Positions 14,685 through 19,667 of a stretch of 64,000 nucleotides of DNA are shown piece after piece. Location: the IMG/VR virus record IMGVR_UViG_3300034993_000085, positions 5,479 through 69,478 of that record; one strand, written 5' to 3'. How positions within the stretch are numbered: the stretch's first letter is position 1; each line of letters opens with the position of its first letter. The notes under the pieces were generated by a model. That model did no database searches and was not told where the DNA came from. It saw only the letters and a program-made list of their open reading frames with translations. This stretch comes from a virus (Duplodnaviria; Caudoviricetes). A program made the translations under genes and the position numbers.

Positions 14685-14758
14685 CGCAGAGAGGCATGCC
14701 GCCTAGGGTACTAGGCGGCATGTTAATGCGGCATGCGAGGTCTCAAGCCCTCGCAAAT
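14685..14758 (+). ncRNA. Twister ribozyme R1 (P5-type permutation)
   Basis: CGCA-GAGAG-[13-bp P1]-U|AA-UGCG-GC..P4 with loop UCUCAAGC-AAAU; T1 covaries (GAG/CUC); predicted cut 14724/14725. Confidence 0.88.
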
Positions 14759-14781
14759 TTGACGCATTTGGAGTATTGACT

Positions 14782-14925
14782 ATGGCACTCGGTACACGTC
14801 ACATTCGGCGCAGCGTGTCCGGATCGAAAAACGGATCACGCTACGATCACCGAGCGACTGTGAAAAACGCGGCTCGCAAAGCACGGCGCGAGGATAGCAA
14901 GCGTGAGGTGCGGAGTAATGGGTGA
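14782..14925 (+). CDS. Basic 47-aa peptide
   Basis: Shared RBS motif; MALGTRHIRRSVSGSKNGSRYDHRATVKNAARKARREDSKREVRSNG (hand translated). Confidence 0.7.
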   Translation: MALGTRHIRRSVSGSKNGSRYDHRATVKNAARKARREDSKREVRSNG

Positions 14926-14943
14926 GATGACGCTAGCCTAAAA

Positions 14944-15012
14944 CGCAGAGGGACATGCCACCCAATCCGGGTGGCATGGTAATGCGCGACCCGGCCCCAA
15001 GTCCGGGTAAAT
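14944..15012 (+). ncRNA. Twister ribozyme R2
   Basis: GCA-GAGGG-P1-GGU|AAUGC-GC..CCCGG-CCCCAAGU-CCGGG-UAAAU; cut 14980/14981. Confidence 0.87.
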
Positions 15013-15034
15013 CACACGCATTGGAGTATTGACC

Positions 15035-15307
15035 ATGAACTATCGGATGCTTACGTTTGACGTTCGCAACATGATTGTCAATCGCGTATTTAAGCACCAT
15101 GGGATAGATAGCACTCCGCGAGAAGGCGAGGCACTCTATCCCAGTATGACGATAGAACGCGCTCCAGATGGGCGGCGGATTGTTGTTGCCGTGCAGTATG
15201 CAATCGTCAACGATACCCATGTCGAGGCGTATTACGATTCGGCAGAGGAGGCGGCATTCTGGCTCGCAAATCCGGACATCGAGCACGCGTGGCGCGCTGG
15301 TAGCTAG
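15035..15307 (+). CDS. Hypothetical early protein (90 aa)
   Basis: Shared RBS motif; the stop codon overlaps the first base of the ribozyme. Confidence 0.8.
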   Translation: MNYRMLTFDVRNMIVNRVFKHHGIDSTPREGEALYPSMTIERAPDGRRIVVAVQYAIVNDTHVEAYYDSAEEAAFWLANPDIEHAWRAGS

Positions 15308-15371
15308 CAGAGGGACGCGGCGCCGCAAGGCGCCGTGGTAATGCGCGGCCCGGCCCCAAGCCCGGGTAAAT
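15307..15371 (+). ncRNA. Twister ribozyme R3
   Basis: Same core, P1 capped by GCAA tetraloop; cut 15339/15340; identical to R8. Confidence 0.88.
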
Positions 15372-15395
15372 ACAAAGCGCAGAGGAGTATTGACC

Positions 15396-16193
15396 ATGGC
15401 TATCTCAAGTGCCCCCACCGGGAACCCGCTTGTTCTGAACCGGGATGAGTTGCGTGATTTATTCATAAGTGCACCCGTCATGCAAGGCGAGACCGTGATT
15501 CTTCACGGGCCTCCTGGCACCGGGAAATCGAGCCTCGCGGACGAGCTAGCTCGCCGGACTGGGCGGCCCGTGTTCTGGGTCGCCTGTCATCCTGACGCTA
15601 CGGCAAATGATGTCGTCGGCGGCTGGACTCCCAAGCCGGATGGCTCGGGTGGCTGGCAATTCACGCCCGGTCCGATGCTCATGGCATGGGGCCTGACGGG
15701 AAATCCGGGAATCCTAATCGTGGACGATGTTCACGAAGCAGGCCCAGGAATCCGGGCGGCGCTGTATACAGCGATGAATCGACATTCAGCGCGCTATACA
15801 ACGCCCGATGGCATCACGCACCAGCCGGATTCGAAATACTGGTGCATTGTCACATCGAACGAGGCGCCCGAGGCGCTCCCGTTCCCGATTCTTGACCGTG
15901 GCGCGATTCGCGCTCCGGTTCTTCAGCCGAGTCAGGACATGCTCGATGCCCTGCATCCGGATATCCGAGATTTAGTCGAAATCGACTATGACGGAGCGAC
16001 GGACAATCCGGTCGCGACGTATCGTGAATGGAGCACGATGTCGAAACTGTGGCCGGCCATTGGGCTCGGTCGCGCGATTTTACTGGCTCTCGGGAGTCAG
16101 GCCCGGGCAAAGCGAATGCTCGAAAGCTTAACCAAGATCGGCATTAAGGACGCTGCCGACGCGTACGCACAAGTTGTCGCATCGATGCCATAA
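15396..16193 (+). CDS. MoxR-like AAA+ ATPase
   Basis: Walker A GPPGTGKS, VVGGWTP, FTPGP, Walker B ILIVDDV (DD for DE), TSN, LDR. Confidence 0.85.
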   Translation: MAISSAPTGNPLVLNRDELRDLFISAPVMQGETVILHGPPGTGKSSLADELARRTGRPVFWVACHPDATANDVVGGWTPKPDGSGGWQFTPGPMLMAWGLTGNPGILIVDDVHEAGPGIRAALYTAMNRHSARYTTPDGITHQPDSKYWCIVTSNEAPEALPFPILDRGAIRAPVLQPSQDMLDALHPDIRDLVEIDYDGATDNPVATYREWSTMSKLWPAIGLGRAILLALGSQARAKRMLESLTKIGIKDAADAYAQVVASMP

Positions 16194-16261
16194 GCAGAGG
16201 GACGCGGCGCCAGCAATGGCGCCGTGGTAATGCACGAATCCGGTCCCAAGTCCGGATTAAT
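16194..16261 (+). ncRNA. Twister ribozyme R4
   Basis: T2 covaries (AC/GU); loop UCCCAAGU; cut 16228/16229. Confidence 0.92.
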
Positions 16262-16284
16262 TCACGTGCAGAGGAGTATTGACC

Positions 16285-18259: not shown

Positions 18260-18469
18260 ATGGTAGTGTGTGATTTCCACGGAAAAGATAGCGCCAATTT
18301 TGTACGCGCTACTATCCGAGTAACATCGATAGTGACCGAGCACAAAACTATCACTGTGGTGAAAGATGCGTGCAAGGAGCACAAGCTCGACGCACTCAAA
18401 TTCGTTACTGAGTTCATGTCGCCCAGGCCGAATAAGCCGGTGAATGTGACCATCGAGGCTATCGACTAG
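18260..18469 (+). CDS. Hypothetical early protein (69 aa)
   Basis: Shared RBS; stop overlaps R7. Confidence 0.75.
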   Translation: MVVCDFHGKDSANFVRATIRVTSIVTEHKTITVVKDACKEHKLDALKFVTEFMSPRPNKPVNVTIEAID

Positions 18470-18534
18470 CAGAGGGACGCGGCGCCGCGAGGCGCCGTGG
18501 TAATGCGCCAGATCGGTCCCAAGTCCGGTCAAAT
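18469..18534 (+). ncRNA. Twister ribozyme R7
   Basis: P1 with GCGA loop; cut 18501/18502. Confidence 0.92.
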
Positions 18535-18557
18535 CACAGCGCAGAGGAGTATTGACC

Positions 18558-18866
18558 ATGGTTACGGATGAGAAGATCATCGACGTTGAAACGGAGATCG
18601 AGATTCGTTACCAGCCAGCCACACCGGAGGGGCTCGGGCTCGATCCAACATCGTACGCTCGCGAGCTATGCGCAAACTTTGACATCGAGTGGATCGCACG
18701 CGTGTCGGAGAAATATCCGGGAGCCGTGAAGCTCGCGGTCGGTGGCAATGGGCTCGGTCCGGGGTATGTCACCTTCGGTCCGTCGCCAAACGGGCTCCGA
18801 GAGGCTTTTCAGGCGTGCGAGGATGTCTACGCCGAGCTAGCGGAACACCCGGAGGTGTGGGCATGA
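18558..18866 (+). CDS. Hypothetical early protein (102 aa)
   Basis: Shared RBS. Confidence 0.75.
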   Translation: MVTDEKIIDVETEIEIRYQPATPEGLGLDPTSYARELCANFDIEWIARVSEKYPGAVKLAVGGNGLGPGYVTFGPSPNGLREAFQACEDVYAELAEHPEVWA

Positions 18867-19021
18867 AAGTCTACATCGTGGAGGAGGGCGAGTATGACGC
18901 GTACGTTATTGGTGTATATTCAACACGTGAGAAGGCTCAAGCAAAGGTCGATGACAGCTACGGTCTTGATCGTGAAATAGTCGAATGGGAGGTCGATAAA
19001 GACCCCGGGCGAACCTATTAG
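18863..19021 (+). CDS. Small phage protein (52 aa, MKVYIVEEGEYD...GVYSTREKA)
   Basis: ATGA overlap with the upstream gene; GGAGG RBS. Confidence 0.75.
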   Translation: MKVYIVEEGEYDAYVIGVYSTREKAQAKVDDSYGLDREIVEWEVDKDPGRTY

Positions 19022-19085
19022 CAGAGGGACGCGGCGCCGCAAGGCGCCGTGGTAATGCGCGGCCCGGCCCCAAGCCCGGGTAAAT
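19021..19085 (+). ncRNA. Twister ribozyme R8
   Basis: Identical to R3; cut 19053/19054. Confidence 0.88.
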
Positions 19086-19109
19086 ACAAAGCGCAGAGGA
19101 GTATTGACC

Positions 19110-19493
19110 ATGCGTATTCGAGGAATTACGCGAGAGCAGGCCGCGCAAGCGGCAGAGCGTGTCGGCGTTGAACTCAACCCAGACACGGACGAAAAGAATG
19201 GTGTGCTACGCACCACGATTAGGCCGGATAGCTCATTGAAGCCAGCGCAGCGAGCGTACACACGGTTCAGCGCGAATCGTGGGCTGGCTCGTCGCCGGGT
19301 CAATGCGGTGTGCTGGCACGGACATCGAGACTGGATGCGCGAGTTATTCCGGATCAATCCTGATGCCGTGATTAGTTCAGCGCTCGCCACATATCGTGGT
19401 GTTCGGGACTTCGATGAAAAATTCTCAGCCACAGCACTGACAAGCGTCGGTCAAGGGCAGACGATGGTCGATCTGTGTGAATGCAATGCCTGA
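19110..19493 (+). CDS. Hypothetical early protein (127 aa, CWHGHRD motif)
   Basis: Shared RBS. Confidence 0.8.
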   Translation: MRIRGITREQAAQAAERVGVELNPDTDEKNGVLRTTIRPDSSLKPAQRAYTRFSANRGLARRRVNAVCWHGHRDWMRELFRINPDAVISSALATYRGVRDFDEKFSATALTSVGQGQTMVDLCECNA

Positions 19494-19578
19494 AAAGCGC
19501 GGGAGAGCGCCGACAACTGACCTATGGTACCTGGGGATCGCCGCACTCGCGGCGATCCTCGCATTCTTACCCTGGTAA
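19486..19578 (+). CDS. 30-aa single-TM peptide
   Basis: MPEKRGRAPTTDLWYLGIAALAAILAFLPW; 8-nt overlap with upstream gene; stop 2 nt before R9. Confidence 0.55.
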   Translation: MPEKRGRAPTTDLWYLGIAALAAILAFLPW

Positions 19579-19579
19579 A

Positions 19580-19644
19580 GCAGAGTGACGCGGCGCCTTC
19601 GGGCGCCGTGGTAATGCGCAGCGCGGTCACAAGCCCGTGCAAAT
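19580..19644 (+). ncRNA. Twister ribozyme R9
   Basis: T1 covaries (GUG/CAC); P1 capped by cUUCGg; cut 19612/19613. Confidence 0.92.
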
Positions 19645-19667
19645 TCAAGCGCAGAGGAGTATTGACC

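Follow-up and report, generated by a model that had tools for sequence, protein, structure and literature searches.

How is a phage operon expressed when nine of the junctions between its genes carry elements that resemble self-cleaving ribozymes, each followed by the same ribosome-binding site (RBS)? This question is raised by the operon at positions 14190–20865 (+ strand) of a 64,000-nucleotide stretch of DNA from an uncultivated tailed phage (the window), which corresponds to bases 5479–69478 of a 69,478-bp virus record in IMG/VR with a CheckV completeness of 100%. The operon comprises about 15 small genes (g1–g15) and extends from the first RBS module to a terminator. In a sequence-only reading of this locus, the nine elements had been described as twister ribozymes of the P5 permutation, placed one per cistron in an early operon, and a covariance-model search with Infernal and the Rfam twister models had been named as the decisive test.

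Identity of the Nine Elements

The window was scanned with cmscan against Rfam at the gathering threshold, the cut-off for Twister-P5 (RF02684) being 37.6 bits. Ten matches were obtained, one to tRNA and nine to Twister-P5, the latter all on the + strand with scores of 47.7–58.1 bits and E-values from 8e-7 to 2e-9. Each of the nine matches spanned model positions 1–58, and Twister-P5 was the best member of its clan (CL00120) each time. In the test named as decisive, all nine elements thus scored above the cut-off.

When the full 69,478-bp record was considered, the Twister-P5 total was the nine units of the window, with none elsewhere in the record, and the same covariance-model search gave no Twister-P5 match in 14 control genomes. 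A permissive Rfam rerun over positions 13000–24500 yielded zero additional ribozymes. Finally, a separate covariance model constructed from the window units recovered the same nine in the window and no others.

The first unit, R1, is located at 14685–14758 (RF02684 match at 14685–14752) and scored 55.4 bits with the Rfam model and 74.7 bits with the separate model. It is followed by R2 at 14944–15012 (match 14944–15006, 47.7 bits), R3 at 15306–15371 (match 15306–15365, 49.3 bits), R4 at 16193–16261 (match 16193–16255, 58.1 bits) and R5 at 17663–17731 (match 17663–17725, 54.4 bits). The remaining units are R6 at 18170–18236 (match 18170–18230, 49.3 bits), R7 at 18468–18534 (match 18468–18528, 53.0 bits), R8 at 19020–19085 (match 19020–19079, 49.3 bits) and R9 at 19579–19644 (match 19579–19638, 52.5 bits).

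Cleavage is predicted after the U of U|AA, that is, at 14724|14725, 14980|14981, 15339|15340, 16228|16229, 17698|17699, 18203|18204, 18501|18502, 19053|19054 and 19612|19613 for R1 to R9, respectively. These positions are exactly the nine that had been listed in the sequence-only reading. As firmly as sequence analysis allows, the nine elements are members of Twister-P5.

Structure and Covariation

Every unit begins with the 5′ strand of stem P2, (N)GCA, followed by G-A, the triplet of pseudoknot T1, a closed P1 hairpin and the cut site U|AA. The 3′ part consists of the 3′ strand of P2 (UGC), the T2 pseudoknot dinucleotide (GC or AC), a short linker, stem P4 and (A)AAU. The arrangement is the P5-type permutation, in which P1 is capped, here by loops of 4–5 nt, and the ends are open beyond P4 and P2. 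P1 measures 9–13 bp and P4 6–7 bp with a YCNCAAGY loop; in R1, P2 has 4 bp (CGCA/UGCG) and P1 has 13 bp. The segments GCAGAG, UAAUGC and CAAG are unchanged in all nine units and include both the U|A cut dinucleotide and the candidate catalytic residue, which we take to be the G in the GA dinucleotide next to the 5′ strand of P2.

Seven units have GGG/CCC as the T1 pseudoknot, R1 has GAG/CUC and R9 has GUG/CAC, while T2 is generally GC/GC, with AC/GU in R4 and a GC/GU wobble in R2 and R7. The variants of R1, R9 and R4 are those from which pseudoknot covariation had originally been claimed. It had also been stated that most P1 loops are of the GNRA or UUCG type, and this applies to six of nine (GCAA in three units, GAAA, GCGA and, in R9, UUCG). 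An AAAU segment had been placed after P4 in all units, but R4 has UAAU at this position.

For comparison, IMG/VR was scanned with a single degenerate core pattern, and at least 114 stretches were matched. The matches were parsed loosely, with T1 and T2 left unconstrained, yielding at least 233 units in at least 101 stretches. Together with the nine of the window, the matches listed give 242 parsed units. T1 was paired in 241 of these, with eight triplet types, in a sample biased towards GGG/CCC because the seeding pattern carried this form of T1.

Covariation was evaluated on 132 phage units (128 distinct) aligned to the separate model, with T1 and T2 added to the pair counts; since the two pseudoknots had been left out of the model, they provide an independent check on the fold. 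Pair counts were taken from this model-based alignment, as a MAFFT alignment (A1) was misaligned at the column after UGCG. Standard pairs made up 99.1% of the pair cells, compared to 66.8% after shuffling and 31–46% when the partners were slid by 1–3 columns, and two-sided changes were found at 21 of 22 pairs.

The P1 and P4 stems vary in sequence and keep their pairing, as had been claimed: two-sided changes occur at 9/9 P1 pairs and 6/6 P4 pairs, with 96–99% of cells paired among the 128 distinct units. In this alignment T1 was 100% paired and each of its three positions showed two-sided changes, and the first T2 pair was AU in 82, GC in 40 and GU in 4. Among the phage units listed, P1 tetraloops were GNRA in 74 cases and UNCG in 17, compared to four of the reverse-complement type, and are thus strand-specific.

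The elements might, alternatively, be inactive relics, that is, twister-like motifs that are now only intergenic hairpins. Such a view could draw on the fourth P2 pair, absent in seven units, and on a distant relative whose corresponding spacer contains a simple hairpin. The core positions are, on the other hand, intact in all nine units as well as in a diverged relative, and the pseudoknots still covary; decay would have broken them. Inactivity is therefore considered very unlikely.

Operon Layout

Ribozymes occupy 9 of the 14 gene junctions of one + strand operon, and the remaining junctions are overlaps or short gaps, so the description of one ribozyme per cistron went too far. Eight of the nine units start 0–2 nt from a stop codon, often in such a way that the G of UAG is the first base of P2 (in R3, the stop TAG overlaps P2), and R2 begins 18 nt past the stop of a 47-aa gene. 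After every unit, an identical ribosome-site module, GGAGTATTGACCATG, was observed.

The 15-nt module GGAGTATTGACYATG is present in exactly 11 copies, all in the operon, against 0.17 expected when up to two mismatches are allowed. Nine of the copies follow ribozymes. The tenth, at 14190–14204 (+), precedes the first gene with no ribozyme ahead and matches GGAGTATTGACCATG exactly; the eleventh, at 17917–17931 (+), directly follows the stop of a 53-aa gene, also without a ribozyme. The two genes joined at 17917 would stay on one message. The general layout of stop, ribozyme and RBS that had been reported for this locus was reproduced, with eight units near a stop codon and all nine followed by the module.

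No terminator-like sites were found on the + strand between 14200 and 20820. The operon ends with a strong intrinsic terminator at 20821–20865 (+), in which a 16-bp stem (8 G-C pairs) and a T-run lie at 20821–20855.

The cassettes are also similar to each other. R3 and R8 share 94 nt without a single difference (15305–15398 and 19019–19112), and R3–R9 are 80–99% alike, the genes around them being unrelated. That R3 and R8 are identical points to a recent copying event or to gene conversion among the cassettes, and recombination between the two would delete or duplicate 3.7 kb.

This similarity between unrelated flanking genes, together with repeat borders placed exactly at stop and start codons and the varying gene content of the arrays in other phages, is what would be expected if the cassettes of about 95 nt were recombination linkers or selfish repeats, serving as homology or mobile repeats with cleavage secondary. 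Homology alone, however, needs neither intact catalytic nucleotides nor covariation in four helices and two pseudoknots, and it does not call for strand-specific GNRA/UUCG loops or for the lack of any unit on the non-coding strand. Homogenisation driven by recombination can also be a by-product of repetition, and a primary role as linkers appears unlikely.

A further candidate, a target-site duplication in which GCAGAGG would flank each ribozyme, was rejected. The repeat is missing from R1 and R2, and its upstream copy has a function of its own as the P2/T1 strand.

Predicted Pairing with the New 5′ End

Ahead of the Shine-Dalgarno (SD) sequence, each leader contains a strand complementary to the 5′ end that cleavage would create. 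The strand is GCGCA in five units, AGCGCA in R5, CGUGCA in R4 and CGCAUU in R1 and R2. All leaders are on the + strand and carry an SD sequence before the ATG.

In the R1 leader (14763–14784; SD GGAG, ATG at 14782), CGCAUU at 14763–14768 complements the 5′ end AAUGCG at 14725–14730, and in the R2 leader (15017–15037; ATG at 15035), CGCAUU at 15017–15022 complements AAUGCG at 14981–14986. In these two units the strand pairs with the very end, in a shifted register. The R4 leader (16265–16287; ATG at 16285) has CGUGCA at 16265–16270, which matches its own UGCACG at 16231–16236 through a two-sided change, and the R5 leader (17735–17757; ATG at 17755) has AGCGCA at 17735–17740, complementary to UGCGCU at 17701–17706.

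The other five leaders share GCGCA. In the R3 leader (15377–15398; ATG at 15396), it lies at 15377–15381 and complements UGCGC at 15342–15346. The corresponding UGCGC segments are at 18206–18210 for the R6 leader (18241–18262; ATG at 18260), 18504–18508 for the R7 leader (18539–18560; ATG at 18558), 19056–19060 for the R8 leader (19091–19112; ATG at 19110) and 19615–19619 for the R9 leader (19649–19670; ATG at 19668).

A Watson–Crick helix of at least 5 bp between the new 5′ end and the strand preceding the SD sequence is possible in all nine units. In the minimum-energy folds, a 5′-terminal stem was present in seven of nine products, and the SD sequence was largely unpaired. The nine copies are paralogous, so the independent support for the pairing strand is modest, consisting of one two-sided change, one register shift and conservation in a relative.

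Since the pairing strand is transcribed after the complete ribozyme, it is read as acting after cleavage. Once the cut has been made, the strand of 5–6 nt would displace the 3-bp P2, by which the upstream product would be released and the cut made irreversible. Strand and new 5′ end would then form a 5′-terminal stem, leaving the SD sequence free.

The same strand could be part of a conditional switch, in which a terminating ribosome, the competing strand or a candidate antisense RNA would regulate cleavage or translation and the array would time or tune early expression. The competing strand is found in all nine units, most of which have a stop codon that overlaps P2 or borders on it (mode −2 nt), and a terminator-like hairpin has a complement of the RBS core in its loop at 8742–8753 (minus strand). 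Action after the cut is nevertheless likelier, given that the strand is made after the complete ribozyme and that twister cleavage is fast. None of the units carries a ligand-binding or sensor domain, and a conditional switch is judged improbable.

Proposed Processing of the Operon RNA

Taken as ribozymes with a post-cleavage pairing strand, the nine twisters probably cut the operon RNA into single-gene or short-block messages with protected ends and a uniform translation start. Cleavage in vivo, the transcript boundaries and the effects of end chemistry are inferred here from sequence.

The operon would be transcribed rightward as one RNA of about 6.6 kb. Each ribozyme would fold once it is made and would cleave the growing transcript on the 3′ side of the U in U|AA, in keeping with the fast cleavage of twisters as a class. 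Because the junctions without ribozymes are overlaps or short gaps, nine cuts would yield ten RNAs: g1, g2, g3, g4, g5, g6–7, g8, g9–10, g11–12 and g13–15.

The P5 permutation would place the cut between two hairpins and so divide the ribozyme between both products. The upstream product would keep its stop codon and end about 35–40 nt later in the G+C-rich P1 hairpin of 9–13 bp, with a 2′,3′-cyclic phosphate. 3′ exonucleases and polyadenylation need a 3′-OH, and a cyclic-phosphate end should resist both. The downstream product would start with a 5′-OH and the P4 hairpin and carry a uniform leader of 54–57 nt with the common RBS module. For each gene, the outcome would be protected ends and a translation start independent of context, with no host RNase needed.

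Several observations weigh against this scheme. P2 has only 3 bp in seven units, in which cmscan flags the fourth pair as non-standard; the 3-bp form is common to most phage units elsewhere. The pairing strand was found in 22 of 231 units of the other phages listed, where 11–17 are expected by chance, and is a peculiarity of this phage and of its closest relative, not general to such arrays. No sigma-70-like promoter site was recognised upstream of 14190. The PolA protein of the phage is at most 26% identical to that of any cultured phage, and no cultured relative was found. The more distant homologues of the g4–g5 module (46% and 32% identity) lack ribozymes at their junctions, which means that the ribozymes are dispensable for the g4/g5 genes as such. 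Finally, RNase J1 of Bacillus reportedly degrades the 5′-OH product of the glmS ribozyme; a 5′-OH end is not stabilising in every host.

The same end chemistry would also permit a different fate, in which the ribozyme-bounded pieces are joined into circular mRNAs by the reverse reaction or by host RtcB. The 5′-OH and 2′,3′-cyclic phosphate ends expected from the family mechanism would suit this, the T1 halves are compatible in seven of eight internal pieces, and P2 and T2 are common to all units. Moreover, the phage encodes Ro60 and putative Y-like RNAs, and in some bacteria Ro60 and Y-like RNAs form one operon with rtcB.

The phage itself has no RtcB, however, and the local strand of 5–6 bp should win the new 5′ end over a long-range P2 of 3 bp. 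Across 19 arrays, neighbouring T1 halves were compatible in 84 of 108 cases, compared to 80.9 when permuted (P = 0.12). Circular or spliced products were sought for hammerhead clusters, and none were found (PMC3088659). Circularisation is accordingly seen as quite unlikely, and processing into linear messages is the preferred reading.

Arrays in Other Phages

The novelty assumed in the sequence-only reading did not hold, as arrays of 5–20 twister-P5 units with their own shared RBS are present in many IMG/VR phages. In 11 IMG/VR stretches, 77 Twister-P5 matches were confirmed by Rfam, always on one strand per stretch. Among the matches listed, 26 stretches contained at least three units, 14 at least five and 3 at least ten, with a median spacing within arrays of 618 nt.

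The layout was also shared. Of the 242 units, 220 adjoin the stop of an upstream open reading frame (ORF; mode −2 nt, median 0), 232 are followed by an SD sequence and a start codon (median distance 25 nt from P4 and 54 nt from the cut), and none are on the non-coding strand. The shared RBS module is particular to each phage, and the array genes of the other phages are unrelated to those of the window. In bacterial and archaeal genomes, the core pattern gave mostly single matches, spread across many phyla.

Two of the stretches, L047 and L117, come from records of complete phages, 89 and 91 kb long and ending in direct repeats, which contain 13 and 20 units. Their units cluster at both record ends on one strand, which is consistent with an early region that enters first.

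No relatives of g5 were found in IMG/VR. The closest relative, on a 1.5-kb contig (L242), encodes a protein of 71% identity, with a twister right after its stop codon (1402–1466, 52.1 bits) at the same junction as R5. The same leader and RBS flank the gene on both sides. The cassette is 88% identical in nucleotides to that of the window (A5): the core, the pairing strand and the RBS are invariant, and most substitutions fall in the P1 and P4 stems without abolishing their ability to pair.

Since this relative keeps the cassette and the distant homologues lack the ribozyme, the cassette is a trait of operon design, not of particular genes, and its conservation shows selection within the lineage. 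In the ENA contig with the g5 homologue of 46% identity (L239), a 90-nt spacer at 4588–4678 contains a plain 7-bp hairpin directly after the stop codon. This hairpin may do the job of the ribozyme P1.

Genes and Surroundings of the Operon

The operon start at 14190 is preceded by a gene-poor region of about 900 nt, and near 14000 both skews, GC and AT, switch to positive values. The only operon gene with a clear family is g4, a MoxR/AAA_5-type ATPase; g5 matched only a PHROG of unknown function.

The first array gene (14202–14684) gave no family match in profile searches. It encodes tandem Ala-Ala-Ala-Pro-Val repeats (14514–14625, +) after an N-terminal CxxC…C. Just upstream, a perfect 11-bp hairpin is found at 14119–14145 (within 14093–14145, +), with GGUCA in its loop. 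Segments near the hairpin complement the shared RBS module, and the hairpin scores as terminator-like on the minus strand. It may control the first gene in cis; this gene is the sole one without a ribozyme-made leader.

Genes for an SNF2 helicase, a DnaB-like helicase and PolA follow the operon on the same strand, while the structural genes are on the other strand; the phage also encodes an HK97-type capsid. With replication genes on the same strand and structural genes opposite, the early expression proposed for the operon is plausible.

RtcB is absent from the phage, as noted above, and no RNA-repair enzymes were detected by Pfam among 30 proteins of the region. The array gave no match to GenBank phages by blastn, and an exact scan of IMG/VR for the RBS module returned only four single, apparently chance matches.

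Candidate Antisense RNA and Ro60 Locus

A candidate small RNA was noted at 8722–8851 on the minus strand. About 95 ORF-free nucleotides separate a promoter-like site (TTGATT-17-TATACT) from a G+C-rich stem of 14 bp and a U-run, which resemble a terminator and end the candidate. The loop at 8742–8753 (minus) contains UGGUCAAUACUCC, the exact complement of the shared RBS module. Apart from the RBS modules, this loop holds the sole copy of the 12-nt RBS core in the window and in the whole genome. When at most one mismatch is allowed, the 12-mer was matched 13 times in the window, where 0.23 matches are expected, and 11 of these matches are RBS modules.

Judging from this complementarity, the candidate small RNA could silence all array genes at once. 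A wider, more tentative proposal is an early programme run almost entirely by RNA, in which ribozymes would cut, the strand preceding the SD sequence would capture the 5′ ends in a protective stem, and the antisense RNA (about 8851–8722) would later silence the eleven genes that share the RBS. This proposal is possible but doubtful. If true, it would constitute a natural, self-contained cassette system for processing, insulation and silencing.

A Ro60/TROVE gene is located at 24167–25942 (+), 4 kb downstream of the array (PF05731, 4e-43; vWA_Ro60, 6e-63). It is preceded by a tRNA-like match at 23841–23917 (45.6 bits) and by a near-match to nematode stem-bulge (Y-like) RNA at 23697–23781, with 37.1 bits against a threshold of 38. 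By sequence, the region 23697–25942 (+) looks like a phage Ro60/Y-RNA locus.

Comparison with Known Systems

The nine units agree with Twister-P5 (RF02684) in full-length matches, element order, the YCNCAAGY loop of P4 and the covariation of both pseudoknots. They differ from the model in P2, which has 3 bp in seven units instead of the model's 4, and in a conserved A-rich AAU after P4, which lies outside the Rfam model.

The layout had been regarded as possibly new; it had in fact been described for another ribozyme class in 2011. In prophages, single genes or short gene blocks are often bordered by several hammerheads, and long phage transcripts were proposed to be processed into gene-length mRNAs (Perreault et al. 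2011, PMC3088659). Triple hammerhead arrangements cleave in vitro, and the set from A. tumefaciens also cleaves in E. coli (PMC3088659). According to reviews from 2017 and 2019, twisters share the gene contexts of hammerheads, and processing of polycistronic RNA has been suggested, with the function still open (PMC6765202, PMC6155905).

The window has an arrangement of this type, with several coding-strand ribozymes flanking single genes or short blocks of a phage. Common to both are the coding strand, the position between small phage genes and the interpretation as mRNA processing. The hammerhead clusters differ in ribozyme class and in number (three versus nine here), and their cleavage was shown, whereas here it is predicted; the window, in turn, has a strict stop–ribozyme–RBS cassette with one RBS module for all.

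Compared to the twister-P5 arrays in IMG/VR, the order of stop, twister-P5, A-rich spacer, genome-shared RBS and start is the same, with 5–20 units per phage. The phages and genes are unrelated, and most of these arrays lack a strand pairing with the new 5′ end. Gene-by-gene arrays of twister-P5 with a shared RBS were not found described in the literature searched, and this absence is not proof.

The operon thus joins an already known kind of ribozyme-punctuated operon and is not a new class of element. The extras specific to its lineage are the strand pairing with the 5′ end and possibly the global antisense RNA and the nearby Ro60/Y-RNA locus. It represents a clean and dense case, with nine intact twisters, one leader and RBS and a defined terminator, and the cassette of stop, ribozyme and RBS is a general design across many uncultivated phages. 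The latter supports the idea that phage ribozymes produce single-gene messages that are host-independent, end-protected and insulated from their context.

Engineered counterparts exist for both proposed outcomes. In Tornado, ends with 5′-OH and cyclic phosphate made by engineered twisters are RtcB substrates and give circular RNA. The twister-made end type is the same here; Tornado differs in being an engineered part, and in this phage RtcB is absent and ligation putative. RiboJ is an engineered self-cleaving ribozyme placed before the RBS, which gives every gene the same leader. The phage cassettes likewise have a ribozyme ahead of the RBS, RiboJ being engineered and the insulation here putative; they offer natural insulator cassettes to synthetic biology, along with concrete test constructs.

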